64,000 nt of DNA from Candidatus Methylacidiphilales bacterium (GCA_028713655.1 JAQTNW010000009.1:8474-72473), one strand, 5' to 3'. Numbered from the stretch's first letter, positions 2,070-60,876 are shown. Made by a program: numbers and translations. The notes: a model not told the origin generated them from the sequence alone.

Positions 2070-3305
2070 CTAGGAAAACAAGTCCCGTCGGGATTCGCGG
2101 CGGCGGAGCTGCAGGGCGTGCTCATAGCGCGCGCGCAAACGCCCGTCGAACCATACCTGGCCGAAAATTTCGCCTAAAACCATCGCCACCCCCAGCACCG
2201 GCATCGCCAGCAGCAATCCCGTGGCCCCTCCGATCACCCCGCCCGCAAAAATCATCAACACCGTCAGCAAGGGATGCGCACTGAGGGAACGTCCGACGGT
2301 CAGGGGCGTATAGAGAAAGTCGTCCAACATCCGCACCACCAGGAACAGGCAAATCGACCCGACAAACAACAGCCGGTTGGCCGGCACGCCGATCGCGCCG
2401 GAAAAATAAAACAGTTGGTCCGGGGCCTGGGCCACGCTGATCAGCGCGACCAAAATGCATCCCAGCACGGAACCGGCAAAGGGGACCCAGGCAAACATTG
2501 CGCACAACAACCCGAGAAAAACAGCCTGCCGAAAGCCAAACAAACCGAAGGGCAATCCAAGCAGCCAAAGCCCCAGAGCCAGCGTAACGGTATCCAGAAC
2601 CGTCAGGGCAATCAGTCCGCGGAAGTACCGTTTCATCTGGCGGTCCACCCGGTCAAACAGGAGCAACACCTTCTCAAAAAACGCGTTCGGCACGCCGCGC
2701 ATAACAAGTCGCTTGCATGTACCCGCGTCTTTCAGGATGAAAAAAGTCAGGTACGGGACCAGGAGAAGCGACGGGATCCACGAAATGAAATATTTCACCA
2801 CGCCGGACAGGTTTTCCTTGATGAAGTTTTCCTTAAGGTCCATCAGCTTCTGGCTGATTGTTTCAGCCACATGGGCGTCCGCCAGCCAGGCATGCCTGCC
2901 TTCCAGGTCCCGCAGGAAACTGTTGATCATTTCCTCGAGACGGGTCAGGCAACCCGGCAACTGGTCCTGCAAAAGATAAATCTGCGTTGTCAGCCAGGGC
3001 AAAACCAGCGGAATCAGAAACAATACCGCCAGCGAAACCATTGCCAAAAAAACATACAGCGCCTTGTCGTGGCTCAATCCCCGGCGCATCAGCATTTCGA
3101 GAAACGGCTGGCTGAGATAATAAAAAACCACGGCCAAAACAAGCGGCAGCGAAACCCACCAGACCAGATCCAGCAAAAAGAGGATGGCCAGCGTCCCTCC
3201 GATCACGCACAGCCAGACAGCCGGATGCTCCAACCCTGTGACGGACGTTTTCAAGTGTAGCTGCCGGGGAACAACGGCGTGCTGCTTTCCCTCAGGCGCG
3301 CGCAA
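2070..3305 (-). CDS. AI-2E family transporter (PerM/UPF0118)
   Basis: 411-aa polytopic membrane ORF. The C-terminal half (LIALTVLDTVTLALGLWLLGLPFGLFGF...WVPFAGSVLG) is typical of the family. An alternative TTG start at 3254 would overlap the upstream stop as TTGA. Confidence 0.85.
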   Translation of the reverse strand: MRAPEGKQHAVVPRQLHLKTSVTGLEHPAVWLCVIGGTLAILFLLDLVWWVSLPLVLAVVFYYLSQPFLEMLMRRGLSHDKALYVFLAMVSLAVLFLIPLVLPWLTTQIYLLQDQLPGCLTRLEEMINSFLRDLEGRHAWLADAHVAETISQKLMDLKENFIKENLSGVVKYFISWIPSLLLVPYLTFFILKDAGTCKRLVMRGVPNAFFEKVLLLFDRVDRQMKRYFRGLIALTVLDTVTLALGLWLLGLPFGLFGFRQAVFLGLLCAMFAWVPFAGSVLGCILVALISVAQAPDQLFYFSGAIGVPANRLLFVGSICLFLVVRMLDDFLYTPLTVGRSLSAHPLLTVLMIFAGGVIGGATGLLLAMPVLGVAMVLGEIFGQVWFDGRLRARYEHALQLRRRESRRDLFS

Positions 3306-3904
3306 TTCAACCGCGCGAGTTGGAGGCTGAGCTTGGCCCCGGTGTGGCCGTGTGTTTCAAGAATGCTCATAAATTCAGGCCGGAAAAACACGAGAAGGCG
3401 GGTGTCGGCGGCCGCCACGGCCGAGGCCATGCGCGGGAATCCTTCCAGCAAGGCCATTTCACCAAAATAACTGCCCGGGCCGAGGCGAGCCAATTCGCTT
3501 TTGCCACTCGCGCCCTTGCGCTGGATTTTTACTTCGCCCTCAACCACGATATACATTCCGAGGCCCTCGTCCCCTTCGTCAAAAATGACCTCCTCGGCGA
3601 TGTAATTCCGTTCGTGCAGGATATGTTCCACCCACTTGAGTTCCTGGGTCTTCAGGGTGGAAAAGAGGGCTACCTTTCTCAGGACCGCCAGCCGCTCGGA
3701 TGCCGCTTCGTTGTTCTTGCCAAAAAGTCCCACGCCTCTATCTACCCGTGCTTTGGCCCCATTGGCAACGTCGAAAATGGCTGAACTTACGGTTATTAGC
3801 CCGGATGTGGGTACTCCTCTGTTTTTGCCCGGTCTTTCGACAGGGCACTTTGCAGGGGTTTGCAGGAGCGTGTGAAACATCCGGGCTATGAACAGATTGG
3901 ACAA
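3251..3904 (-). CDS. Cyclic nucleotide-binding domain protein
   Basis: LFSTLKTQELKWVEHILHERNYIAEEVIFDEGDEGLGMYIVVEGEVKI...GPGSYFGEMALLEGFPRMASAVA, including the FGE(M/L)AL...R(S/T)A cNMP-binding signature. The first ~57 codons overlap repeat R1, so the real start is probably GTG at 3733. Confidence 0.8.
   Translation of the reverse strand: MSNLFIARMFHTLLQTPAKCPVERPGKNRGVPTSGLITVSSAIFDVANGAKARVDRGVGLFGKNNEAASERLAVLRKVALFSTLKTQELKWVEHILHERNYIAEEVIFDEGDEGLGMYIVVEGEVKIQRKGASGKSELARLGPGSYFGEMALLEGFPRMASAVAAADTRLLVFFRPEFMSILETHGHTGAKLSLQLARLNCARLRESSTPLFPGSYT
3797..3888 (-). repeat. R1 stem-closed element, copy 1 (minus orientation)
   Basis: TAGCCCGGATGT (3797-3808) pairs with ACATCCGGGCTA (3877-3888). 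The loop is collinear with copy 39525-39606 (TTTCACaCGCTyCTG..CAAAGTGyCCTG..AAAGACCGGGCAAAA). Confidence 0.8.
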
Positions 3905-3927: not shown

Positions 3928-3998
3928 CTAAAACGCCAACGGCGTTTCGTCCTTCAGCCCAGGGTTGATCCGAGCTTGTCGAGGATCTACCCTGGGTA
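3928..3998 (+). repeat. R3 hairpin element (CAGCCCAGGGTTG...ACCCTGGGTA)
   Basis: Small hairpin AAACGCCAACGGCGTTT, then TTCAGCCCAGGGTTG..CTACCCTGGGTA. Homologous to 10229-10303 and inverted relative to 4099-4172. Confidence 0.75.
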
Positions 3999-4098
3999 AA
4001 ATCAAAAAATCATCCCGAACCCTGAAAGTGGTTCCGGCCGCCTCTCGCGCAAGCCCCTCTGCCACAACTCTTTCAGAGTTGGGGACTATTTTGACAGA

Positions 4099-4172
4099 TA
4101 CCCAGGGCAGGCCCTCGCAGACTCGTGCCAACCCTGGGCTGCAGGACGCTACCCCGAAAGCTTTCGGGGTAG
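4099..4172 (-). repeat. R3 hairpin element, inverted copy
   Basis: TACCCAGGGCAGGCCCTCGCAGACTCGTGCCAACCCTGGGCTG plus hairpin CTACCCCGAAAGCTTTCGGGGTAG. The flank TTTTGACAGATACCCAGGG is the reverse complement of 10285-10303. Confidence 0.75.
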
Positions 4173-4375: not shown

Positions 4376-4717
4376 ATGATTTTCGACGAAACGGTGGAAG
4401 GCACCCTGGCTATCCTGCACCTGAAGGGCGATGTGGACCTGCATCACTCGCCCAAACTCCGCGCCGTTCTCCAGTCAAAAATCGCCGTCAAATGCCCTTG
4501 TCTCCTGATTAATTTCACGGAGGTCAACTACATCGATTCCTCCGGCCTGGCCACTCTGGTCGAATACTACCAAGGCTGCCGCAATTTTTCCGGGAAAATC
4601 GGGCTCGCCGCCCTTTCACCCCGCGTCAAGAGCGTCTTCGATCTCGTGCGGCTTGGGGAGGTGTTTCCCATTTACGTCACCTTGGACGAAGCCCGGAGCG
4701 CCTTGGGAAAAACCTGA
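4376..4717 (+). CDS. STAS-domain protein (anti-sigma-factor antagonist / MlaB-like)
   Basis: 113 aa. LAILHLKGDVDLHHSPKLRAVL...VNYIDSSGLATLVEY, with the conserved DSSG phospho-serine motif of SpoIIAA/RsbV. Sits directly upstream of mlaE-like. Confidence 0.85.
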   Translation: MIFDETVEGTLAILHLKGDVDLHHSPKLRAVLQSKIAVKCPCLLINFTEVNYIDSSGLATLVEYYQGCRNFSGKIGLAALSPRVKSVFDLVRLGEVFPIYVTLDEARSALGKT

Positions 4718-4720
4718 GCT

Positions 4721-5467
4721 TTGCCGACTGTGAAGGAATACTTCCAGCTCAACGCTCAAATCCTTTACTGGCTCTTCATTGCGCCGTTTCGCGGCAAGCC
4801 ATTCAGCATCCCGCAAACTTTTCACCAAATCATCCGCATCGGCGTGCAGGCGTTGCCCATGGCCAGCCTCACGGCGTTCAGCGTCGGCCTGACCCTTGCC
4901 ATGGAAGCCGCCCGCGAAATGGGCCGGCTCGGCGCCGACAATTACGTCCCGGACCTGGTCTCGCTCACGCTCCTGCGCGAACTGGGCCCCATGCTGATCG
5001 CCGTCATTGTCATCGGACGCAGCGGTTCCGCCGTCACGGCCGAGCTCGGCACCATGAAGGTCTCGGAGGAAATCGAGGCCCTGCACGTCATGGCCATCAA
5101 TCCCGTCCGCTTCCTCATCGTTCCGCGCTTTCTCGCCATGCTCATCATGCTGCCCGTGCTCACCGTGTTCGGAAACTACATCGGCATGGTCGGCAGTTGG
5201 ACGATCTGCCATTACACGCTCGACATGGACACCGCCACCTACATCTTCCGCTCCCTGGACCGTGTGCATCTGTTTGACCCCTACAGCGGCCTGATCAAAA
5301 GTTTTGTCTTTGCCTGGCTCATCATCACCCTGGCCTGCCATTGCGGCCTGACCGTCGAAAACGGCGCGGAGGGCGTGGGGCAATCCACGACGCATTCCGT
5401 CGTCTATTCCCTGCTGGCCATGCTCATCGCCAACGCCCTTTTGACCGGAATCTTTTTCTTTGCCTGA
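4721..5467 (+). CDS. mlaE: MlaE-family ABC transporter permease
   Basis: 248 aa, TTG start. Multi-TM protein with the MlaE-like block GADNYVPDLVSLTLLRELGPMLIAVIVIGRSGSAVTAELGTMKVSEEIEAL. Confidence 0.85.
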   Translation: MPTVKEYFQLNAQILYWLFIAPFRGKPFSIPQTFHQIIRIGVQALPMASLTAFSVGLTLAMEAAREMGRLGADNYVPDLVSLTLLRELGPMLIAVIVIGRSGSAVTAELGTMKVSEEIEALHVMAINPVRFLIVPRFLAMLIMLPVLTVFGNYIGMVGSWTICHYTLDMDTATYIFRSLDRVHLFDPYSGLIKSFVFAWLIITLACHCGLTVENGAEGVGQSTTHSVVYSLLAMLIANALLTGIFFFA

Positions 5468-5468
5468 C

Positions 5469-6308
5469 ATGAAAACCCAAGCCAACTCTTCTCCGCCAGG
5501 AGCCAACGAGCCGGTGATCGAAGTCACCGACCTGGTCCGGAAATTCGGCAACCGCGCCGTGCTCAACGGCATCAGTTTCAAGGTCTATAAAGGCGACACC
5601 CTCATCATCATGGGCGGCAGCGGCTGCGGCAAAAGCACGCTCCTGCGCCATATCACCGGATCCCTCAAACCCACCTCCGGCTCCATCAAAATCTTCGGGC
5701 AGGAAATCGTCGGATTGCCCGGGCCGGAGATCGACAAAATCCGCCGCCGTTTCGGCGTGAATTTCCAGTTCGGAGCGCTGCTCCAGTCCCTCACCGTCGG
5801 GGAAAATGTGGCGCTGCCGCTGCGCGAGCACAGCAAGATCGAGGAGAATATCATCGACCTGATTGTAAAAATGAAACTCGAACTGGTCGGCCTCACCGGC
5901 TTTGAAAATCTCAAGCCTGCTGAAATCAGCGGCGGCATGCGCAAACGCGTCGGCCTGGCCCGCGCCGTGGCCCTCGACCCGGAATTGCTTTTCAGCGACG
6001 AGCCCACCTCCGGTCTCGACCCCGTCATGACCGCCGTCGTGGACAAGCTCACCATGGACCTTACAAAAAACCTGGGCATGACCGCCCTCGTGGTTTCGCA
6101 CGACATGACCAGCGCCTTCCGGATCGCCACCCGCATGATCATGCTCGGCACCGGCCCGTTGCAGGGTAAAATCATCGCCGAAGGCACCCCCGATGAAATC
6201 CGGAATCATCCCGATCCCATGCTCCAGCAATTCATCCGGGGCGAACCGGATGGCCCAATTCCCTTGAAACTATCGAAGGACGACTATATCAAGAGACTCA
6301 TAGGCTGA
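5469..6308 (+). CDS. mlaF: MlaF-like ABC transporter ATP-binding protein
   Basis: Walker A GGSGCGKST, signature ISGGMRKRVGLARA, Walker B LLFSDEPTSGLD. ATG at 5469 lies 1 nt after the mlaE stop; the ORF track starts at TTG 5460. Confidence 0.9.
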   Translation: MKTQANSSPPGANEPVIEVTDLVRKFGNRAVLNGISFKVYKGDTLIIMGGSGCGKSTLLRHITGSLKPTSGSIKIFGQEIVGLPGPEIDKIRRRFGVNFQFGALLQSLTVGENVALPLREHSKIEENIIDLIVKMKLELVGLTGFENLKPAEISGGMRKRVGLARAVALDPELLFSDEPTSGLDPVMTAVVDKLTMDLTKNLGMTALVVSHDMTSAFRIATRMIMLGTGPLQGKIIAEGTPDEIRNHPDPMLQQFIRGEPDGPIPLKLSKDDYIKRLIG

Positions 6309-6324
6309 AACCGGAACCCGAACC

Positions 6325-7143
6325 ATGAAAAATAAAAACCTCTCCGATTATATCATCGCCGCCGCCGTCATCGGTTGCAGCGCCGTGCTGCTGACAGCCC
6401 TGACCATCGCCCTCACCGGCTGGGAAAGCAAGTCCGGCGGAAAAATCATCCTGGTCGATATGCCCTCGGTCATCGGCTTGCGCGAAAACTCGCAGGTGCG
6501 TTATGCGGGCGCCCATGTCGGCAAGGTCATGAGCATCAAGCCGCTGGCCTGGAACGAACGCGCCAATCCGAAATACGCCGTGCGGATCATGGTCAAAATC
6601 ACAGGCCCCATGCCGGATCTCAAAGAGGATTCCATCGCCTCCATCAATTCGGACACCATTCTGGCGGAAAAATTCCTGGATATCTCTCCCGGCTCGCCCG
6701 AAGCCCGGAATCTCCCGCCCAACCAGCCTTTGCTCTGCCGCGATGTTGCCAGCTTCGACGACCTTTCGCGCGCGGGCATGAATTCTCTGACCCGGCTGAA
6801 TGACATTCTGGACAAATTGCAAAACGATCACAGCGATCTGCCGGCGAAGATCAGTTCGATGCTCGATAACGCCGATATGCTCGCAAAAAATGCCGATACA
6901 CTTGTCAAACAACTCAACGTGGTTCTCAAGGAACACGAACACGACATGGATCAGGGGATCCAGGATTTGCGGGTTGTCATGCAAAACATGAAGGTGGTCT
7001 CCACCTACGCCAAGACGCTGAGTGGAACGCTGGCCCACAAACCGTGGCGGATTGTCTGGGGCACAACGCCCAACGAACTTCCCTCGGAAGCTGAAATTCT
7101 AAAAGCAGACAAGCCCATCCCGGCAACCATGCCCAAGGAATAG
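6325..7143 (+). CDS. mlaD: MlaD/MCE-domain substrate-binding protein
   Basis: N-terminal TM (IIAAAVIGCSAVLLTALTIAL), then an MCE-like beta domain (VRYAGAHVGKVMSIKP) and a helical tail. Position after mlaE/mlaF. Confidence 0.8.
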   Translation: MKNKNLSDYIIAAAVIGCSAVLLTALTIALTGWESKSGGKIILVDMPSVIGLRENSQVRYAGAHVGKVMSIKPLAWNERANPKYAVRIMVKITGPMPDLKEDSIASINSDTILAEKFLDISPGSPEARNLPPNQPLLCRDVASFDDLSRAGMNSLTRLNDILDKLQNDHSDLPAKISSMLDNADMLAKNADTLVKQLNVVLKEHEHDMDQGIQDLRVVMQNMKVVSTYAKTLSGTLAHKPWRIVWGTTPNELPSEAEILKADKPIPATMPKE

Positions 7144-7220
7144 GCGGCAAAAATTCAAAAGTCTCAACTGTACACAACGGGCGCAAATCTACACAGATGA
7201 GAAACATGACAGACCGGAAT

Positions 7221-7344
7221 GGGAGCGCGGGCGTCCCGCCTGCTCAGAGAGGCATCCTGCCTCTCGATCATTTTTATGGATTTTTTACAGATGCAGGACT
7301 GTTGGGCAAGATGCCCAACAGAGCGGGCGGGACGCCCGCTCTCC
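7221..7344 (-). repeat. R4 GC-rich triloop-hairpin palindromic element
   Basis: GGGAGCGCGGGCGTCCCGCCTGCTC AGAGAGGCATCCTGCCTCTCG ... GTTGGGCAAGATGCCCAAC AGAGCGGGCGGGACGCCCGCTCTCC. Homologous to 33830-33962, with the central part inverted. Confidence 0.75.
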
Positions 7345-7385
7345 GGGAAAATCCGATCCAGGCAGCATAACCCCAACCTGCGCCC

Positions 7386-9083
7386 ATGAGTTCCGCACCC
7401 GAGGTCCTGCGTTACAAAGCCCTGATTGAAGCCGCCCGCCGACTCAATTCGGCGATGGACGTCAACGCCATCCTCAGCCAAATCCTGGCCTCCTCGCGGG
7501 AAGTCATGGCCGCCGAAGCCATATCGGTTTTCATGGACGACCCCGCCACCGGCGAGCTTGTGCTCCATGCGGCCGCCGGCGACCCCGCCCAGCAGTGGAC
7601 CGGCGAAACGGACGCCAACGGCGAACCCAAACGCAAAATGACCGAAATCCGCGTGCCCCGCGGAGCGGGCATCTCCGGGCACGTCTTTGAACACCGCAAG
7701 AGCATCAACATCCATGATGTCCAGAACGATCCGCGCTTCTACCGCAAAGCTGATAGTGACACCGGCTTTGTCACCCGCTCCATGATCACCGTGCCCCTGC
7801 TCACGGGCGACCGTTGCCTCGGCGTCGTGCAGGCGCTCAACTCCATCGACCGTCCTTACTTTGACGACCTCGATCTCGAGATCTTCGAGGGCTTCGCCAG
7901 CCTCATCGCCGGCACACTGTTGCGCCTGGAAAACCAGTCGCGCGAAATGTCCGAAGCCCGCGCCCGGCAGGAGCTCGACCTGGCCCGCGAAATCCAACAG
8001 TCTTTCCTCCCGCCCCCGCTGCGGATTCTGAACACATGCCAGGTCCGCGTCGGTTACTTCCCCGCGCGCCAAATCGGGGGCGATTTCTATTTTGTCCACC
8101 CGCTGGACGAGAACCGCACCCTGATGGGATTGGGTGATGTGACCGGCAAGGGCATCCCCGCCGCGCTGACCATGTCCCGCGCCACGGCGGAAATCAAAGG
8201 CCTTGCCGGCGGGCTCAAGGACGACCTGGGGGCCTGGGTCTCCTCGCTTAACACTATAGTAGCGGAAGAACTGAGCGCCGGGCGTTTTATCGGCATGACC
8301 TTTTTGCTCTGCGACAGCCGCAGTTCCACAATGCAAATCTGCGCCGCGGGCCAATACCCGCCTGTCTGGTCGGACGCCGCACGTTGGAACCGTCCGGCCA
8401 TCCCCTCCCAGCTCCCCATCGGCATCCTTTCCGGGTACCCCTACAAATCGGAAACCCTGGCCCTCAAACCCGGCCAAATCTGGGTCTTGTTCTCGGACGG
8501 CATCACCGAAGCGCGAAATGAGGCCGGCGAGGAATTCACCGAGGAACACTTTCTGAAACGGCTGCCCCTGGGCCTCAGCGGAGCCCATACCTTTGACCAG
8601 GCCATCGAAGGATGGAAGGATTTCGTCGGCAAAGCCGAGCCGCACGATGACGCCTCCCTGCTCATGCTGGACTGGCGCGGCAACGCCCCGGCAAACGACC
8701 TCGCGATCAGTTGCCAGACCGAGAACCTCTGCACCGCGCGCACGTTTATCGAGGACTGGGCGAAATACGCCGGGTTTGACGACATCACCATCGGGCAGAT
8801 CGTTCTGGCAGCAGATGAGGCGACCACCAATGTATTCCGCTACGCATACGGCGGCAAGCCGGGGCCGATTGACTATCATGTTTCCATCGACAACAATCAG
8901 CTTGTCATCCAAATCCGCGACCACGGCACACCGGTCGATCCCTCCAAAGTCCAGGGCAGGAAACTGGAAGATTTGCGGCCCGGCGGCTTGGGCGTGGTGC
9001 TGTTGCACAAGGTCTTTGGGGAAGTGACCTACGAGCCGCAGCAGGTTGGAACCCTATTGACCTTGAGAAAGAAAATCATGTGA
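7386..9083 (+). CDS. GAF-domain / PP2C (SpoIIE-RsbU-type) phosphatase / RsbW-like HATPase kinase fusion protein
   Basis: N-terminal GAF (ILASSREVMAAEAISVFM..GELVLHAAAGD). PP2C core (LAREIQQSFLPP...GGDFYFV...GDVTGKGIPAALTMS...FSDGITEA...DDASLLMLDW). C-terminal N-box DEATTNVFRYAY and G-box RPGGLGVVLL. Confidence 0.85.
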   Translation: MSSAPEVLRYKALIEAARRLNSAMDVNAILSQILASSREVMAAEAISVFMDDPATGELVLHAAAGDPAQQWTGETDANGEPKRKMTEIRVPRGAGISGHVFEHRKSINIHDVQNDPRFYRKADSDTGFVTRSMITVPLLTGDRCLGVVQALNSIDRPYFDDLDLEIFEGFASLIAGTLLRLENQSREMSEARARQELDLAREIQQSFLPPPLRILNTCQVRVGYFPARQIGGDFYFVHPLDENRTLMGLGDVTGKGIPAALTMSRATAEIKGLAGGLKDDLGAWVSSLNTIVAEELSAGRFIGMTFLLCDSRSSTMQICAAGQYPPVWSDAARWNRPAIPSQLPIGILSGYPYKSETLALKPGQIWVLFSDGITEARNEAGEEFTEEHFLKRLPLGLSGAHTFDQAIEGWKDFVGKAEPHDDASLLMLDWRGNAPANDLAISCQTENLCTARTFIEDWAKYAGFDDITIGQIVLAADEATTNVFRYAYGGKPGPIDYHVSIDNNQLVIQIRDHGTPVDPSKVQGRKLEDLRPGGLGVVLLHKVFGEVTYEPQQVGTLLTLRKKIM

Positions 9084-9117: not shown

Positions 9118-9165
9118 CTTGGGCGGGACGCCCAAGGCTTTTGGACTGCGGCGGCATGCCGCCGC
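9118..9165. repeat. R4-like hairpin pair
   Basis: CTTGGGCGGGACGCCCAAG and GCGGCGGCATGCCGCCGC. The same first hairpin type occurs at 44322-44340. Confidence 0.65.
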
Positions 9166-9182: not shown

Positions 9183-10157
9183 ATGTCCTCCATGCAAAGC
9201 GTCCGCCGCGGCGGACGCACTCCAAAATTTTGGGATGAATACGAAATCAGCAACGGAGAAAGCAGCTTGAAAATCACATTCTGGGGAACCCGCGGCAGCA
9301 TTCCCACGCCCAGCACCAGTTCGTTCGTCACCAGCCAATACGGCGGGGACACCACCTGCATTTCCGTGGATTGCGCGGGCCATCGCGTGATTCTGGACGC
9401 CGGGTCCGGCCTCCGGCTTTTGGGCCTGGAAATGGCCAAGGAAACCGCTCCCATCCAGGCCACCTTCTTTTTCAGCCATGTACATTGGGACCATATCCAG
9501 GGGTTCCCATTTTTCATCCCCGGTTTTCAAAAAGGAAACCGCTTTGACTTGTACGGCCCGCACCTGGGCATATCACCGGATTTCGTCGGCAGCATTCTCG
9601 AAAAGGCGTTGCGCGGCCAGCAGAATGACCTGAACTTCCCGGTCCAGCTCAATGACATGCCCGCCGAGATGATCTTTCGCGACCTGCCGGAGCGCGCAAA
9701 AGTGGAAATCCAGGGCCCGCTCGGACTGGTCAAGGTTTTCTCCGCCCCGCTCAATCATCCCGGAGGCTGTTTCGGCTACCGCATCGAGGAACACCGTCCG
9801 GGCCAGGCGGTAAAAGTCCTCGCCTTCGCCACCGACACGGAACATCTGGACGCCGTGAATCCTAACATGCAATTTCTGGCCAAAAATGCGGATGTCCTGA
9901 TATACGATTGCCAGTACTCACCGGAAGAATACGCCGACGCCAACGGATATAGCCGAAAAGGCTGGGGACATTCCACGTATGAATGGGGCCTGCGAGAAGC
10001 CAAGGCCGCGGGCGTCAAACGGCTTGTCATGCACCATCACGACCCGTTGCACGACGACAGCAAGGTGGCAGACATGGAAAAACGGGCTCGCGTCATGGGC
10101 AAGGATCTGGGCATCGAAGTCCAGGCGGCAGCCCAAGGCATGGTGCTCGAGCTATAA
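9183..10157 (+). CDS. MBL-fold metallo-hydrolase
   Basis: KITFWGTRGSIPTP...GGDTTCISV...ILDAGSG...FFSHVHWDHIQGFPFF (HxHxDH). The start is uncertain. The ORF opens at GTG 9114 inside a repeat. ATG 9183 is reported, but TTG 9267 is preceded by GGAGAAAG and is also plausible. Confidence 0.8.
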   Translation: MSSMQSVRRGGRTPKFWDEYEISNGESSLKITFWGTRGSIPTPSTSSFVTSQYGGDTTCISVDCAGHRVILDAGSGLRLLGLEMAKETAPIQATFFFSHVHWDHIQGFPFFIPGFQKGNRFDLYGPHLGISPDFVGSILEKALRGQQNDLNFPVQLNDMPAEMIFRDLPERAKVEIQGPLGLVKVFSAPLNHPGGCFGYRIEEHRPGQAVKVLAFATDTEHLDAVNPNMQFLAKNADVLIYDCQYSPEEYADANGYSRKGWGHSTYEWGLREAKAAGVKRLVMHHHDPLHDDSKVADMEKRARVMGKDLGIEVQAAAQGMVLEL

Positions 10158-10228
10158 ACCCGATTTGCGGGCAAAATCGTCATCGATCGCGAGAGTTTTG
10201 AGCGGAAATGAACACGAGTTATGGCTTA

Positions 10229-10303
10229 CCGCAACGCGGTTGCGTCTTTCAGCCCAGGGTTGGCGCGAGTCAGCGAGAGCCTACCCTGGGTATCTGTCAA
10301 AAA
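10229..10303 (+). repeat. R3 hairpin element
   Basis: CCGCAACGCGGTTGCG TCTTTCAGCCCAGGGTTGGCGCGAGTCAGCGAGAGCCTACCCTGGGTATCTGTCAAAA. Confidence 0.75.
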
Positions 10304-10316
10304 TGTTCCCAGCGTC

Positions 10317-10946
10317 TTAATCCCCCTGATTGGGGCAGAGATATTTGAAGGCATAGGCCGCCGCCGCGCCGCCGAGAAAATTGGCCACAAGATAAATCCA
10401 GATGCTGCTCGAAGCGCTCAAGCCCATGACCGTGATGCCCAGCGCAACCGCAGGATTAAAGGCGCCGCCGGAAACACCGCCGACGGCAAAGGCCATCACC
10501 ATGACAGTCGAGCCAATGGCAAGCCCATAAAACGAATTACCGGCCGTGGCTTTTGCCGTGGCGACGTTCAACACGACAAAGGCCAAAGCGAAGGTGCCGA
10601 GAAATTCGGCGAGCAACGACGGTCCGATTTCAGGATGACTGGCTTCAACCGAGGGGTTGCCTTTGATGAACTGCACAACCAGGGCGGCCGCCACAGCACC
10701 CAGCAACTGGGATGCCATATAACCCGGCACCTCGGAAGCGTTAAGCTTGCCCCGCAAATAAACCGCGAGGCTCACCGCCGGATTGTAGTGTCCGCCGGAA
10801 ATGTGACCACCCGCATAAACCATGATCATCAGGGCGGCGCCAATGGCCAGGGGGGCCATTGAGGTTGCGCCGGGGTTCATGACAGTATTACCCACGGTAA
10901 AAACCAGGAAAAACGTTCCAAGAGCTTCGGTTAAATATTTTTTCAT
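10317..10946 (-). CDS. aqpZ: Aquaporin / MIP-family channel
   Basis: 209 aa. Two NPA boxes (GGHYNPAVSLA and GGAFNPAVALG) and six hydrophobic segments. Confidence 0.9.
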   Translation of the reverse strand: MKKYLTEALGTFFLVFTVGNTVMNPGATSMAPLAIGAALMIMVYAGGHISGGHYNPAVSLAVYLRGKLNASEVPGYMASQLLGAVAAALVVQFIKGNPSVEASHPEIGPSLLAEFLGTFALAFVVLNVATAKATAGNSFYGLAIGSTVMVMAFAVGGVSGGAFNPAVALGITVMGLSASSSIWIYLVANFLGGAAAAYAFKYLCPNQGD

Positions 10947-11409: not shown

Positions 11410-11772
11410 ATGAGTACAAAATTATATGTCGGGAACCTTGCGTTCCAAGTCACAGAAACCGATCTCCAGGATCTGTTTACACAACACGGGGCCGTCAGCG
11501 AAGTGCATGTCGTCCTCGACCGCGTTACCGCGCGCCCTCGCGGCTTTGCCTTTGTCACGATGGCTGACGCCGAAGGCGCCAAGGCAGCCATTGAAGCGCT
11601 CGACGGAAAAGATTTCCAGGGCCGCACCCTGACGGTCAATGAGGCCCGTCCTCCTGAACCCCGCAGCTTCGGCGGCGGCGGTGGTGGTGGTGGTGGCCGC
11701 GGTTTCGGTGGCGGCGGCGGCGGCGGTGGCCGTGGTGGCAAACGCGATTTCGGTCGCGGTGGACGTCGCTAA
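11410..11772 (+). CDS. RRM-type RNA-binding protein with Gly/Arg-rich tail
   Basis: RNP2 KLYVGNL and RNP1 RGFAFVTM. C-terminus [32 protein letters not shown]. Confidence 0.9.
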
Positions 11773-25463: not shown

Positions 25464-25613
25464 CGCGCAATCCCTCCATCCTCTTCGGGAGCGCGGGCAT
25501 CCTGCCCGCACCGTTGCGCATCTGGAACACTCGCGATTTATCGGAGTTGCGCAACGGATGCCTTTCAATCCGTTCCCCTCAGGGTGTGTTCCGAGCTTTG
25601 ACTTCTGCATTCT

Positions 25614-33829: not shown

Positions 33830-33962
33830 GGGAGCGCAGGCGTCCCGCCTGCTCTGCCGGGCATCCTGCCCGGCAGTCCTCGCATCTACAGGATTTTTAA
33901 TGAATACAAAAGCAACCGAGAGGCAGGATGCCTCTCGGAGCAGGCGGGACGCCCGCGCTCCC
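33830..33962 (+). repeat. R4 GC-rich triloop-hairpin palindromic element
   Basis: GGGAGCGCAGGCGTCCCGCCTGCTC TGCCGGGCATCCTGCCCGGCA ... CGAGAGGCAGGATGCCTCTCG GAGCAGGCGGGACGCCCGCGCTCCC. Confidence 0.8.
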
Positions 33963-54466: not shown

Positions 54467-56593
54467 ATGAAAAACATTCTCCTGCTCGCTTCAGCCGGTC
54501 TGGCGACCCTGCTCATCGGCATTGCCGGAGGGCGTTACCTGCTTCCGGCATCTTCGCCTTCCCCCTTGTTTTCCGGGCACAAGGAAACATCGCCATCCGG
54601 AGGGACAAAACCTTCCGGGTCCAGTTCGCAATTGTTGGCCGAAACGAATCCAACTTCCGGCACGGGGCCATCCGCCTCAACAGCGCCCAAGGATCTCGCC
54701 TCAATCCTCAATGAGCCGAACGGCTATCGCAAGCAGCGCGACCTTTACCTCTACGCCGACACCCTCGCAGCCAAGGACATCCCGGAAGCCTTGAAACAGA
54801 TCAACGCCATGCCCATGAGCATGGACAAATATTTGGCCCTGTCCACGCTCGGCGGACGGTGGGCGGAACTTGATCCCGAAGGCGCACTGGCGTACTCGGA
54901 TAAAGCGCTTAAAGGTACTGACAAATCATTGGCCTACTCCATTATCGGCAGTGTCTATGGCTCTCTCGCGGCATCCAACCCGGAACACGCTCTGGGCCTG
55001 GCCCAAAAAATAGAAGACACCCAGCAACGGAGCATCGCCACGCAGGCCATTTTGAGCCAGCTCGCACAGCAGGACCCAGCCAAGGCGCTTCAACTGGCGC
55101 AAAGCGTCAAGGACCAAAGCCGAAATTGGATATACCAAAACATTTTCAGCACGATGGCCTCCAAGGACCCGGCGCAAGCCTCGCAAATGGCGCTGCAGTT
55201 GCCCGCAGGCGAACAACGCCGGCAGGCAATCCAGGGCGTCGCCATGTCTTGGGCTCAAAAAGACCGCCCCGCCGCGCTTGCCTGGCTGGAGCAACTTCCT
55301 TCCGGCAACGATCAAAACATGGCCATGCAAACTATTGTCTCCAACTGGGCCGCGTCGGATCCAAAAGCGGCCGCCGCTTACATCGACAACATCCCCAGCA
55401 CAGGGCAAAAGAACAACCTGATCTCCAGCATCGCCTGGCAATGGGCGCAAAATGATACCCCGAGCGCCCTCGAATGGGCGCAAAAGCTGCCGCCTTCCCA
55501 GGCGAAAAGCTCCGCCTTGCAACAAATCACATCCCAGTGGGCGCAAAAAGACCCCAAAGCCGCCGCCGCATTCGTCGATACCCTTCCCCCGGGCAACCAA
55601 AAAAATAACATCGTCAGATCCATCGCCATACAATGGGCCAACACCGATGTTCCCTCGGCATTGGACTGGGTGCAAAAATTGCCCGACGGCCAGAACCGCA
55701 ACAACGCCTTGCAAAACATCGTTTCCCAATGGGCGCACAACGACCCCAAAGCCGCCGTGCAATACGCCCAGTCGATCCAACAAGCCAGCGCGCGCGGCGA
55801 TGTGCTAAGATCGGCCGCCTCTCAATGGGTCAGCAGCGACCCCGCAGCGGCCATCGACTGGCTCAAGTCCCTCCCCGAAGGTGAAAGCAAAAACCAGGTG
55901 ATCAACGGCATCAGCTACCAGTGGGCCAGCAACGACCTCAAATCAGCGGCAACTTTTGCGCTCACATTGCCTCCGGGACAAGCCCAAACCAACATGATCA
56001 ATGCCGTTGCCAACCAATGGAGTTCGGAAGACCCGGCCAAGGCGCTTGCGTGGATCGGGCAATTGAGCGAGGGCGACGCGAAGAACCAGGCAATGTCCAG
56101 CGCTGTGGGCCAATGGGCCGGAAATGACCCGAAGGCTGCTGCGACCTACATCAATTCGATGCAGGAGGGCGACGCCAAGAATAACGCCATCAGCTCGGTG
56201 GCAAGCCGCTGGGGCGACTCGGATCCGGCGGCGGCGGCGCAGTGGCTTTCCAACCTCCCGGACAACAATCAGAAGACCAACGCCATGTCCAACATCGCCA
56301 GCCAGTGGGGGCGCAATGATCCTGAAAAAGCCTCCGTCTGGCTGGATAAACTGCCGGCCGGGCCTTCACGCGACGCGGCCGTCCGTTCCTTTTCAACCCA
56401 GGTCATCAACGCCGACCCCGAGGGCGCCTACATGTGGGCCGCCAGCATCGGGGATGAAAACAATCGCAACAGCCAAGTCCAATACGTCCTCCAACACTGG
56501 ATGAAAATCGACTCCACGGCGGCGGCGGCAGCCGTTCAAAAATCCTCCCTCAGCGACCAGGACAAGCAACGATTACTTCAAATGAAGCGTTAG
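54467..56593 (+). CDS. Membrane-anchored protein made of ~16 tandem ~36-aa helical (HEAT/ARM-like) repeats
   Basis: N-terminal TM NILLLASAGLATLLIGIAGG, then repeated units of the form ..QWAQKDPKAAAAFVDTLPPGNQKNNIVRSIAI.. . Confidence 0.75.
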   Translation: MKNILLLASAGLATLLIGIAGGRYLLPASSPSPLFSGHKETSPSGGTKPSGSSSQLLAETNPTSGTGPSASTAPKDLASILNEPNGYRKQRDLYLYADTLAAKDIPEALKQINAMPMSMDKYLALSTLGGRWAELDPEGALAYSDKALKGTDKSLAYSIIGSVYGSLAASNPEHALGLAQKIEDTQQRSIATQAILSQLAQQDPAKALQLAQSVKDQSRNWIYQNIFSTMASKDPAQASQMALQLPAGEQRRQAIQGVAMSWAQKDRPAALAWLEQLPSGNDQNMAMQTIVSNWAASDPKAAAAYIDNIPSTGQKNNLISSIAWQWAQNDTPSALEWAQKLPPSQAKSSALQQITSQWAQKDPKAAAAFVDTLPPGNQKNNIVRSIAIQWANTDVPSALDWVQKLPDGQNRNNALQNIVSQWAHNDPKAAVQYAQSIQQASARGDVLRSAASQWVSSDPAAAIDWLKSLPEGESKNQVINGISYQWASNDLKSAATFALTLPPGQAQTNMINAVANQWSSEDPAKALAWIGQLSEGDAKNQAMSSAVGQWAGNDPKAAATYINSMQEGDAKNNAISSVASRWGDSDPAAAAQWLSNLPDNNQKTNAMSNIASQWGRNDPEKASVWLDKLPAGPSRDAAVRSFSTQVINADPEGAYMWAASIGDENNRNSQVQYVLQHWMKIDSTAAAAAVQKSSLSDQDKQRLLQMKR

Positions 56594-57576
56594 AGATTCG
56601 GATGGCCGGGATTTTCATCCCGCGCCTCTGCGTCCGGCGTGAGATGGGGATAGGAAATCCGGCCCGTCCGGCGTGTCAGGTTGTACCAAAGGGCCTTGCG
56701 CCTTTGCTCAAGCCCCAGTTGAATGGCCGCGTCGGAAACAAACTCCACCGATGACAAAAATCCCACACGTTCTGGCACACTGAGCATTTCCTTCCGGTTC
56801 CATTCGACGGAAAGCAGGCCGCTGAGCATCTCATTGTAATTTTCATTAAAGCAGGAAAAAAGAACGTCCGCTTCCGTAAGGATCACACACTGGGCGGCCA
56901 GCAGCCGTTCCTCATGATCCGGCGGCAGTTGGCGGCATTCGCGGTAAGCAACCCTCACCAGGGGGACGCCATTGGCAAAATCGGTTGAAACAATCATCCG
57001 CCCGATCCGTTCGATCCGCTCCTCCCCAAGCCCCGCCTCAACCAGCACGGGGTAAATGATATGATAAGACCGCGTCTCCAGCTCATAGGCGTGCCGGTTG
57101 ATCCCGCCTGTATGCCCCAGATCGTGCGCCGCCGCCGCAATCAGCAGTTCCACCACGCGGTCAACCGGGAGATGTTCCCGCATTCCCAGGCAATAGGCCG
57201 CCAGGATCACTTCCGTCACATGCTGGTCATTGTGATACGTCGGCTGCTCCCCGCCTGTTCCCGCCATTTCGCTGGCTTTCAACGCGGCCCGCCCCAATTC
57301 CGACTCCAGTCCACATCCAAGCTTCTGCAGTAAAATCGGCATGATGAGGCCGGGCTTGGCCTTGCTCGCGCGAAGTTTTTCAGCTTCGGCGGCAAAAACA
57401 TCCAGCAAGTTTTCCCCGGGCTTGTCATCCATTCCGGACACATCCCGGGCCCCTTTGGCTTCATGAATGGTCCCGACCAACCCCTTGAGATCAATCAGGG
57501 TGGTGGCGGAAAATTCCGGCAACTGCGGCACACGGGAAGTGCCGCTGTCTGGATCGGGCTGTTTCATCTGTCCCAA
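56590..57576 (-). CDS. HD-domain metal-dependent phosphohydrolase with class-I cyclic-nucleotide-phosphodiesterase-like motifs
   Basis: TYHNDQHVTEV (compare PDE YHNxxHAxDV), AAAHDLGHTGGIN (compare HD[LIV]xHxG..N), IVSTDF (compare ATDM), LTEADVLFS (compare xCADxS). Confidence 0.55.
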   Translation of the reverse strand: MGQMKQPDPDSGTSRVPQLPEFSATTLIDLKGLVGTIHEAKGARDVSGMDDKPGENLLDVFAAEAEKLRASKAKPGLIMPILLQKLGCGLESELGRAALKASEMAGTGGEQPTYHNDQHVTEVILAAYCLGMREHLPVDRVVELLIAAAAHDLGHTGGINRHAYELETRSYHIIYPVLVEAGLGEERIERIGRMIVSTDFANGVPLVRVAYRECRQLPPDHEERLLAAQCVILTEADVLFSCFNENYNEMLSGLLSVEWNRKEMLSVPERVGFLSSVEFVSDAAIQLGLEQRRKALWYNLTRRTGRISYPHLTPDAEARDENPGHPNL

Positions 57577-59346: not shown

Positions 59347-59811
59347 ATGTCCACAATCACTCAAACCGAACGGCCTGTTTCCAGAGTGGATCTGAAATCC
59401 TATGATTTTACGGGATATCGAATCCTGGTGATCGATGACAATGACGGGGTGCTTTTTTCCCTGCAAAAATGCCTCCACGAACTCGGAGCCTGGGTGACCA
59501 CGGCGGCTTCAGGCCGGGATGGCCTTGAATTATTGGACCTGGAACCCTTTCACCTCATCATTCTGGATATTATGATGCCCAAACCGGATGGCTGGGATAT
59601 TTTCGTGAAATTGCGCCGCTCCGATCGCCACAAAACCCTGCCGGTTGTTTTCCTGACCGGGTTGATTTCCGTTCCGCAGTCAAATTTTCTGAACAAGGGA
59701 TATTCCGAATATTGCCGCATCGTGACCAAGGGAGAGCCGATGCAACGGCTGGTCGGCGTCATTCATGATCTGCTGGGCTCTTGCGCCCAATCGCCAGCCT
59801 CTTCGCATTAA
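59347..59811 (+). CDS. Single-domain response regulator (CheY-like receiver)
   Basis: ILVIDDNDG...HLIILDIMMPKPDGWDIF...LPVVFLTGL...VTKGEP. Confidence 0.85.
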   Translation: MSTITQTERPVSRVDLKSYDFTGYRILVIDDNDGVLFSLQKCLHELGAWVTTAASGRDGLELLDLEPFHLIILDIMMPKPDGWDIFVKLRRSDRHKTLPVVFLTGLISVPQSNFLNKGYSEYCRIVTKGEPMQRLVGVIHDLLGSCAQSPASSH

Positions 59812-59911
59812 AACTCCGGTCTGTTCGAAAATAGACGGCCATTTGGCCCTGTCCGTTTGACACCAAGCCCCTAAAATGGCATGCTCTGCACGAATTAGTT
59901 TATAAACCGCC

Positions 59912-60343
59912 ATGCCACCTGATAAAGCTGAAGTCAAACTCAGAGCGGTCAAACGCTGCCTGAAGGACAAGTCCATTCTCGTTGTGGATGATGACCCCGC
60001 ATGGACCGGCGCCATGGTCAAATTGCTGGAAAGCCTCGGCGCAAGCGTCAACTCCGCCGCCAACGGAACCGATTGCATCCGGCTTTTACGCTCGGTTCAT
60101 TTTGATCTCGTCCTACTCGACATTCTGATGCCCGGAATCGACGGCTGGGACGTGTTTGCCATGATGAAAAACATTCTTCAAAACCGTGAAATACCCGTTC
60201 TCATTCTCACCGGATTGACGAAAGAAGGCGTCTCGGAAAAATTGGCGCGCCTGCCCGTTCCGGAAAACCAGGTGCTCCAGAAAAATTCGCCGCCTGAGAC
60301 GATCCTGCAGGCCATCTGTAAAATTCTAAGCCCGCCGGAATGA
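59912..60343 (+). CDS. Single-domain response regulator (CheY-like receiver), paralog of the preceding gene
   Basis: ILVVDDDPA...DLVLLDILMPGIDGWDVF...IPVLILTGL...LQKNSP. Confidence 0.85.
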   Translation: MPPDKAEVKLRAVKRCLKDKSILVVDDDPAWTGAMVKLLESLGASVNSAANGTDCIRLLRSVHFDLVLLDILMPGIDGWDVFAMMKNILQNREIPVLILTGLTKEGVSEKLARLPVPENQVLQKNSPPETILQAICKILSPPE

Positions 60344-60876
60344 GAAAACGCTTCCCATGGGCGTTGGGAAGTTGCAGGCTTGTTTTGCCCCTGTTTTTCA
60401 TTTTGATTTCCAATACTTTCGCAGACACCGGAATGTCCCTGCATTCACCCGCCTTTGGCAACGGCGATCCGATCCCCACAAGGCACGGCTATCGCCATGA
60501 AAATATCAGCCCGGAACTAGCCATTGAAAATGTGCCGGCAGCCGCTAAATCCCTCGTCTTGATCTGCACCGACCCGGACGCGCCCTCGGGAGTCTGGACC
60601 CACTGGCTGCTTTGGAACATTCCGCCGGACACGCAAAAAATCCCCGATGGGAAAACACCGCCGGGTGCGGTGGCCGGCAAAAACGACTTCGGCAACACGC
60701 GCTACGACGGGCCGTCTCCCCCTTCCGGAACCCACCGCTACTATTTTCAACTGTTTGCGCTGGACGTTGTATTAGAACTAAAATCCGGAGAGGGGCGCGC
60801 GGCCCTCGAAACCGCCGTAAAAGGCCATGTGATTTCAAGCGCAACGCTCATGGGTACCTGCAAGGCCGGGAATTGA
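60340..60876 (+). CDS. YbhB/YbcL-family PEBP (Raf-kinase-inhibitor-like) protein, secreted
   Basis: Signal peptide, then LVLICTDPDAPSG..WTHWLLWNIP...GPSPPSGTHRYYFQLFALD. ATGA overlap with the upstream response regulator. Confidence 0.85.
   Translation: MRKRFPWALGSCRLVLPLFFILISNTFADTGMSLHSPAFGNGDPIPTRHGYRHENISPELAIENVPAAAKSLVLICTDPDAPSGVWTHWLLWNIPPDTQKIPDGKTPPGAVAGKNDFGNTRYDGPSPPSGTHRYYFQLFALDVVLELKSGEGRAALETAVKGHVISSATLMGTCKAGN

Follow-up and report, generated by a model that had tools for sequence, protein, structure and literature searches.

The window analysed here, a stretch of 64,000 nucleotides (nt) from Candidatus Methylacidiphilales bacterium (GCA_028713655.1, JAQTNW010000009.1:8474-72473), carries at positions 4,376 to 9,083 the genes of an Mla-type ATP-binding cassette (ABC) transporter, headed by a gene for a STAS protein and followed by a gene for an enzyme in which a GAF sensor domain, a PP2C-type phosphatase and an RsbW-type kinase are fused. 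Five plus-strand open reading frames (ORFs), with Pfam in agreement, make up this order of STAS, mlaE, mlaF, mlaD and GAF–PP2C–kinase. The initial annotation had described the same order, together with a repeat-filled gap of 242 nt before the last gene, a STAS protein that keeps the serine motif YIDSSGLATL, kinase and phosphatase activities encoded beside the transporter, and the lack of an mlaC-like gene in the cluster; on each of these points our analysis agrees with it. The features of the operon are:

4376-4717, plus strand: STAS protein of the RsbV/SpoIIAA type, 113 amino acids (aa), first gene of the operon (Pfam PF01740, 65 bits).
4721-5467, plus strand: MlaE-family permease, 248 aa (PF02405, 241 bits; TIGR00056, 227.4 bits against a cutoff of 212.2).
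5460-6308, plus strand: MlaF-type ABC ATPase, 282 aa (ABC_tran, 113 bits; ISGGM signature).
6325-7143, plus strand: MlaD, long, 272 aa (PF02470, 40.1 bits against a cutoff of 25.1).
7178-7374, no strand assigned: inserted palindromic repeat resembling a miniature inverted-repeat transposable element (MITE).
7386-9083, plus strand: fused sensor–phosphatase–kinase, 565 aa (Pfam GAF, SpoIIE/PP2C and HATPase_c_2).
7458-7916, plus strand: GAF domain of the fused enzyme, residues 25-177 (Pfam).
8109-8678, plus strand: SpoIIE/PP2C domain of the fused enzyme, residues 242-431 (PF07228, 130 bits).
8718-9071, plus strand: RsbW-type HATPase_c_2 kinase domain of the fused enzyme, residues 445-562 (PF13581, 83.6 bits).
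9148-9165, plus strand: strong terminator-like hairpin, 65 nt past the stop codon of the kinase gene, in which 7 G-C pairs lead into a T run.

The STAS gene heads the mla operon, its stop codon 3 nt from the start of mlaE. In SpoIIAA and RsbV, the serine of the DSSG motif is phosphorylated by HATPase_c_2 kinases and dephosphorylated by PP2C phosphatases of the SpoIIE/RsbU type. The protein encoded here has this acceptor motif intact, within YIDSSGLATL, and the serine is Ser55 (nt 4538-4540). DSSG is retained in 119 of 120 database homologs, in which the whole of helix α2 is invariant, and at all 80 STAS loci collected from genomes, a figure that is partly biased because the motif was built into one of the two patterns used for that scan. 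The protein passes the anti-sigma-antagonist model TIGR00377 of NCBIfam (74.9 bits against a cutoff of 53.45). Its best solved-structure matches by sequence are SpoIIAA proteins, which place Ser55 opposite their phospho-serine (the residue mutated in 1TID). In an AlphaFold2 model (predicted local distance difference test score 89.8), Ser55 stands at the N terminus of helix α2 (residues 55-68), and the top Foldseek matches of that model are RsbV and SpoIIAA from kinase complexes, with TM-scores of 0.8-0.9. By family, the protein is a kinase substrate of the RsbV/SpoIIAA type that lies outside the proteobacterial MlaB family, with Ser55 as its predicted phospho-acceptor.

The fused enzyme would supply both modifying activities. 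Across 16 orthologs, the PP2C metal-binding residues Asp233, Asp251, Asp371, Asp421 and Asp422 are invariant, as are Glu478 and Asn482 of the kinase N-box, Asp512 of the G1 box and Gly533, Gly534 and Gly536 of the G2 box, so that the domains and catalytic motifs of a kinase and a phosphatase are intact beside the transporter. Searched with family hidden Markov models (HMMs), the window showed no further STAS, PP2C or RsbW-like gene. An exact look-up of the 565-aa sequence found no record of it. The GAF domain of the window's enzyme holds a 14-residue insertion, WTGETDANGEPKRK, at about residues 72-85, which is missing from all 15 aligned orthologs.

As for the transporter, the top NCBIfam match of the ATPase is the MlaF model NF008809, at 230 bits and under its equivalog cutoff of 441. 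The protein has a C-terminal extension that ends in DYIKRLIG. It aligns end to end with Pseudomonas aeruginosa MlaF (7CH8), extension covered, and with Escherichia coli MlaF up to residue 263 of 269, again with the extension included. Tyr276, Leu280 and Ile281 correspond to Tyr261, Leu265 and Leu266 of E. coli MlaF, the triad that docks at the MlaF–MlaB interface. MlaD opens with a hydrophobic transmembrane helix at its N terminus, continues with one MCE domain and ends in a stretch of about 150 aa; it misses the MlaD equivalog TIGR04430 (45 bits against 135), and the MlaD proteins of relatives give faint Helical_needle matches. Neither MlaC (PF05494) nor MlaA (PF04333) was found in the cluster, in the 5 kb or so upstream as annotated in the relative L081, in ORFs over about 11 kb downstream, or among the roughly 45 ORFs of the window that were scanned (six large ORFs beyond 46 kb lay outside the scan). 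MlaEFD-only systems are common, and MlaB is sparsely distributed (Grasekamp et al., PMC10665443).

The gap between mlaD and the kinase gene spans 242 nt (7144-7385) and contains an inverted repeat with 40-nt arms (7222-7261 and 7305-7344); the region folds much better than shuffled controls (z = -6.8). In L081, a close relative reached through an exact match to the STAS sequence, the same spacing is only 46 nt, and alignment with it resolves the repeat as a clean insertion of about 195 nt at 7178-7374. The gap repeat is, by this alignment, a strain-specific insertion and no part of the ancestral operon, whose state was therefore a compact STAS–mlaE–mlaF–mlaD–kinase/phosphatase operon. The hairpin at 9148-9165 probably ends the transcription unit, and together with the 46-nt spacing in L081 it fits a single transcription unit. 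A sigma-70 promoter scan found no more matches than expected by chance, and the intergenic region upstream had none. The gap repeat itself is a nested palindromic element resembling a MITE or a repetitive extragenic palindrome, roughly 125-195 nt long, with the core GGGAGCGCGGGCGTCCCGCCTGCTC; a second copy lies at 33831-33961 and a partial match at 25488-25506. A reading of the gap as tandem repeats was rejected in favour of this single nested palindrome insertion.

We then compared gene neighbourhoods. A STAS-anchored scan of one genome per GTDB species gave 80 loci, nearly all from Verrucomicrobiota according to their record titles, a few of which seem to be wrong. At 76 of them STAS adjoins mlaE, and the full mlaEFD set is present wherever the contig permits, L008 and L046 being rearranged exceptions; STAS genes without Mla, which are solo paralogs, occur at L024, L039 and L042. 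Sixty loci had enough downstream sequence to be assessed. Directly after mlaD, 36 of the 60 have an RsbW-type kinase gene, which in 23 is the fused GAF–PP2C–kinase and in 13, all from one clade, a stand-alone HATPase_c_2 kinase of 144 aa followed by a gene for a metallo-beta-lactamase-fold (MBL) protein. Kinase-bearing loci occur in at least 9 of 21 sequence clusters, including deep ones in which MlaE and MlaF are 56-59% identical to those of the window. In the 24 loci without an adjacent kinase, STAS stays with mlaEFD as the first gene, which argues that it acts with the transporter itself.

A reverse test, in which a metagenome scan was anchored on the fused enzyme, gives a rough frequency in the other direction: among the matches listed, 7 of the 12 closest, GAF-containing relatives (L084, L085, L086, L088, L090, L091 and L094) adjoin STAS–mlaE(FD), with the enzyme upstream. 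The remaining close relatives among these matches are L083, which is unlinked, and others too short or partial to judge. At L083:1535-3199 the ortholog (43% identity) is flanked by efp and by genes for heptose biosynthesis, and its neighbourhood contains neither STAS nor Mla genes, so the enzyme also occurs apart from the transporter. About 65 more distant PP2C or PP2C–kinase relatives among the matches listed often have a STAS neighbour and almost never Mla; the single Mla-linked exception among them is L151. Judged by gene neighbourhood, the link of the fused enzyme to STAS–Mla is specific.

Across these loci, STAS–mlaEFD travels with kinase and phosphatase genes in at least five arrangements, listed here with the related order on L084:

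Verrucomicrobiota, first arrangement: STAS, mlaE, mlaF, mlaD, fused GAF-PP2C-kinase.
Verrucomicrobiota, second arrangement: STAS, mlaE, mlaF, mlaD, kinase.
Rudaea/Xanthomonadales (L088 lineage): pssA, fused GAF-PP2C-kinase, STAS, MlaE, ABC, (DegV), MlaD, ABC_trans_aux lipoprotein.
Nitrospirota (L086 lineage): GAF-SpoIIE, HATPase_c_2, STAS, MlaE, ABC, MlaD, with phosphatase and kinase as separate genes.
L084 (44% GC; L084:5-3135): class III adenylate/guanylate cyclase, GAF-PP2C, kinase, 159-aa cyclic nucleoside monophosphate (cNMP)-binding protein, FecR-domain protein, unknown ORF, STAS, MlaE.
L151 (46% GC): accA, kinase, STAS, MlaE, MlaF, MlaD, CHASE2-PP2C.

In the Nitrospirota arrangement, the stop and start codons of the GAF–SpoIIE, HATPase_c_2 and STAS genes overlap. 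The phosphatase of L151 (L151:6090-8000), encoded after mlaD, is a membrane protein in which an extracytoplasmic CHASE2 sensor is fused to PP2C; with GAF on the phosphatase in some lineages and CHASE2 in another, the input domain is therefore interchangeable. All STAS proteins of the Rudaea, Nitrospirota, L084 and L151 arrangements keep DSSG, and the module neighbourhoods examined showed no further STAS gene. The best evidence available for joint action is that, in at least three phyla, the same six functions remain together however their genes have been fused, split or reordered. The surroundings of the Rudaea-like module are lipid-themed: at L163:6177-14395 and at L088 the module is co-oriented with pssA, which encodes phosphatidylserine synthase and overlaps the enzyme gene by 4 nt, and the module includes a gene for a DegV fatty-acid-binding protein and ends with the PqiC-like ABC_trans_aux lipoprotein.

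The module shares features with two sets of known systems. Like the E. coli MlaFEDB complex (6XGY, 7CH7; PMC7367683), it has MlaE, an LSGGM-type MlaF with a C-terminal extension, an MCE-domain MlaD and a single-domain STAS gene in the operon, and Ser55 lies opposite Thr52 of MlaB, at the centre of the MlaF-binding face. Unlike E. coli MlaB, the STAS protein here is of the RsbV/SpoIIAA type, 113 aa long and equipped with helix α4; its gene comes first in the operon, whereas that of MlaB comes last; no MlaC or MlaA was found in the cluster and the scanned ORFs, and the MlaD protein is a long one. The operon here also encodes a cognate kinase and phosphatase, whereas no phosphorylation has ever been demonstrated for MlaB of E. 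coli (PMC7367683). The closest sequence and fold matches of the switch components are in the Bacillus subtilis RsbU/RsbV/RsbW and SpoIIE/SpoIIAA/SpoIIAB systems, which likewise combine a DSSG STAS protein, a HATPase_c_2 serine kinase and a SpoIIE-type PP2C phosphatase. The set here has every defining feature of partner switching except a sigma factor; unlike the B. subtilis systems, it has its kinase and phosphatase fused behind a GAF domain and lies inside a transporter operon, with no sigma factor gene.

Enzymes that fuse PP2C and kinase and act on a STAS effector include P. aeruginosa HsbR (with HsbA), Vibrio fischeri SypE (with SypA), Shewanella CrsR (with CrsA) and Mycobacterium tuberculosis Rv1364c, and the output of HsbA and SypA is something other than a sigma factor. 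To our knowledge, none of these four systems has been tied to an ABC or MCE transporter. As in HsbR, SypE and CrsR, the window's enzyme joins PP2C to an RsbW-like kinase in a single chain and has a STAS gene in the same cluster; unlike them, with their REC input (PAS in Rv1364c), it begins with a GAF domain, and other lineages of the module have split enzymes or CHASE2–PP2C. SypE of V. fischeri has been described as a PP2C–kinase regulator with SypA as its STAS partner (PMC10120452, PMC4517449). In P. aeruginosa SiaABCD and in Anabaena HenR/All4160 (PMC13555669), a STAS phospho-switch acts directly on an enzyme, a diguanylate cyclase in the former and a glycosyltransferase in the latter, and the phosphorylation state of the STAS domain governs a non-transcriptional envelope or biofilm function. 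Neither switch has a tie to an ABC or MCE transporter; the proposed target here differs in being the ATPase of an ABC transporter, and the module in being conserved across phyla.

We infer from gene neighbourhood and homology that the module is an MlaFED-type MCE ABC transporter with a dedicated phospho-switch, in which phosphorylation of the STAS protein gates the MlaF ATPase, and we hold this to be rather probable. The STAS protein would take the role of MlaB, as the cytoplasmic partner of MlaF, while being a true kinase substrate of the RsbV/SpoIIAA type; it may thus function like MlaB although it is no member of that family. In its unphosphorylated form it would bind MlaF through the face of helix α2, with Ser55 at the centre, and support assembly and ATPase activity. 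Phosphorylation of Ser55 by the RsbW-type kinase domain would release it and turn the transporter off, and removal of the phosphate by the PP2C domain would turn the transporter on again. The N-terminal GAF domain (CHASE2 in L151) would determine how far kinase or phosphatase activity prevails; the GAF ligand might, at a guess, be a cyclic nucleotide. The STAS–MlaF contact, the pairing of STAS with the kinase, the active phospho-state and the lipid cargo are likewise putative. Work on E. coli provides the template: MlaB binds the helical subdomain of MlaF by a helical face with Thr52 at its centre, is needed for stable association and activity of MlaF, and binds MlaF less well when it carries the phosphomimetic substitution T52E; Kolich et al. 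(2020) raised phosphoregulation of MlaB, at its conserved Thr/Ser, as an open possibility without evidence, and posed the regulation of active MlaB as an open question (PMC7367683).

The initial annotation had proposed that the partner switch may act on the transporter and had named a lack of conserved synteny in relatives as a refutation. The proposal withstands this test in the relatives covered, which within the Planctomycetes–Verrucomicrobia–Chlamydiae (PVC) group were Verrucomicrobiota only, and the synteny that supports the transporter as output extends well beyond PVC.

Several observations weigh against a transporter switch of this kind. Sequence and fold both class the STAS protein as an anti-sigma-factor antagonist. 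It fails the MlaB equivalog model NF033618 (23.6 bits against a cutoff of 90), E. coli MlaB ranks only 50th in the search with its predicted fold (TM-score 0.62-0.71, a likeness at the level of the fold only), and an hhalign comparison with E. coli MlaB, whose sequence was matched to the PDB, is weak (probability 58%), while pairing Asp54-Ser55 with Asp51-Thr52. HMM searches detected no kinase or PP2C within 10 kb at 24 of the 60 assessable loci (40%), among them L005, which has the closest MlaE and MlaF sequences. The ortholog of the fused enzyme at L083 is unlinked from Mla. In the strain analysed, a terminator-like hairpin inside the gap repeat (7247-7265) may cut the kinase gene off from the rest of the operon.

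Some of these points recur in the best-placed alternative, a classical partner switch that controls a sigma factor encoded elsewhere. The kinase domain would be the anti-sigma factor and the STAS protein its antagonist, and the mla genes would be co-transcribed only, for instance as part of an envelope-stress response, and not be a direct target. The match to TIGR00377, the kinase-bound RsbV and SpoIIAA structures that head the fold search, and weak RsbW- and RsbA-type NCBIfam matches in the kinase domain are all what such a system would show, and the Rsb system of Chlamydia also has no alternative sigma factor adjacent to it (PMC8256260). We nevertheless consider it unlikely. No sigma-factor domain was found in about 5 kb upstream (annotated in L081) or in ORFs over about 11 kb downstream, as the initial annotation had noted for the vicinity, nor in the other scanned ORFs of the window, with the same six large ORFs beyond 46 kb outside the scan; and none of the variant operons examined contains a sigma factor gene. 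A sigma-factor switch also leaves unexplained why STAS is the first gene of mlaEFD at the 24 loci with no kinase nearby, and MlaB sets the precedent, as a STAS protein that serves as a subunit of just such a transporter.

That precedent could be taken further, to a STAS protein that is a constitutive, structural subunit like MlaB, with the DSSG serine an ancestral relic and the neighbouring kinase and phosphatase acting on different STAS proteins or on other substrates. E. coli MlaB keeps Thr52 and has no known kinase, 40% of the loci have no adjacent kinase, and solo STAS paralogs exist in some genomes (those of L024, L039 and L042). We regard this as improbable: a kinase and a PP2C stand beside STAS through five gene orders and three phyla, with overlapping codons in Nitrospirota, these neighbourhoods hold no other STAS gene, and the near invariance of DSSG and the invariance of helix α2 amount to a constraint that exceeds the needs of a relic. 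An inverted switch, in which the RsbW-like kinase domain itself binds and inhibits MlaF until unphosphorylated STAS captures the kinase and relieves the inhibition, would be the literal analogue of RsbW/sigma-B/RsbV logic and would suit a binding role at the 13 loci with a stand-alone kinase and no local phosphatase, but it is likewise improbable in view of the 24 loci that have STAS–mlaEFD with no kinase nearby, the invariant ATP-binding motifs, which imply catalysis, and the conserved C-terminal triad of MlaF, the MlaB contact in E. coli.

The genes and repeats that flank the operon are:

2070-3305, minus strand: AI-2E family transporter, divergent from and upstream of the operon.
3251-3904, minus strand: stand-alone cNMP-binding protein (PF00027, 84 bits), divergent from the operon.
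3937-4156, no strand assigned: repeat with inverted arms, in the 471-nt region 5' of the STAS gene.
9270-10157, plus strand: MBL-fold hydrolase (PF12706, 57 bits; HxHxDH motif intact).

The cNMP-binding protein is annotated as 160 aa in the relative L081. Its gene (about 160 aa) and the AI-2E gene are kept upstream of STAS–mlaEFD, in divergent orientation, in Verrucomicrobial clusters 1, 6 and 7, which also carry the kinase gene, and the 159-aa homolog of L084 lies inside the module near the class III cyclase gene. The stand-alone cNMP-binding protein is a possible accessory input component, and one may speculate that its recurrence and the L084 cyclase hint at a cyclic-nucleotide input. In Verrucomicrobial clusters 1, 5, 6 and 7, one of which is the clade that has a kinase and no local PP2C, the MBL gene comes after the kinase gene without exception. 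Matches of the MBL protein to RNase Z, phosphodiesterase and arylsulfatase are all weak, and its membership of the module is uncertain; we considered it as a substitute for the phosphatase in the kinase-only clade and found no support for this.

The repeat at 3937-4156, present there as inverted copies, belongs to a family with the core CTTCAGCCCAGGGTTG, which has 3 matches against 0.03 expected; a related copy lies just past the MBL gene (10195-10311), so that related repeats stand on both sides of the whole cluster. If translated, repeats of this family yield spurious 'PGLARV.E.LPWVSVK' ORFs. Further along the window, the gene at 11410-11772 (plus strand), beside an aquaporin gene (10317-10946, minus strand), encodes a small RNA-binding protein that has an RRM domain and a tail rich in glycine and arginine. 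The regions 59347-60876 (plus strand) and 56590-57576 (minus strand) hold two adjacent receiver-only response-regulator genes, then a PEBP-family gene, and close to these a protein that weakly matches PDEase_I, the 3',5'-cyclic-nucleotide phosphodiesterase family.

What is new here is a partner-switch-like phospho-module whose putative output is an Mla-type lipid transporter; in the full-text literature, where coverage of subscription journals is thin, we found no paper in which an Mla STAS protein is tied to a kinase or phosphatase. Post-translational control of lipid traffic between the two bacterial membranes is largely unknown, and these operons join a STAS subunit of the kinase-substrate type with a kinase, a phosphatase and a sensor, so that the hypothesis can be tested in vitro with four or five proteins. 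A phospho-switch on MlaF, if true, would give intermembrane lipid transport its first dedicated on/off control at the post-translational level and be a natural case of the MlaB phospho-regulation that has so far been only hypothesized for E. coli. It would also bring a transporter into the small group of outputs of partner switching that are not sigma factors. Whether one module, in which phosphorylation of a STAS serine gates an MCE/Mla transporter and interchangeable GAF or CHASE2 sensors provide the input, operates across phyla is in our judgement evenly balanced; that it recurs in Verrucomicrobiota, Xanthomonadales and Nitrospirota points to a general strategy as opposed to a lineage-specific oddity.

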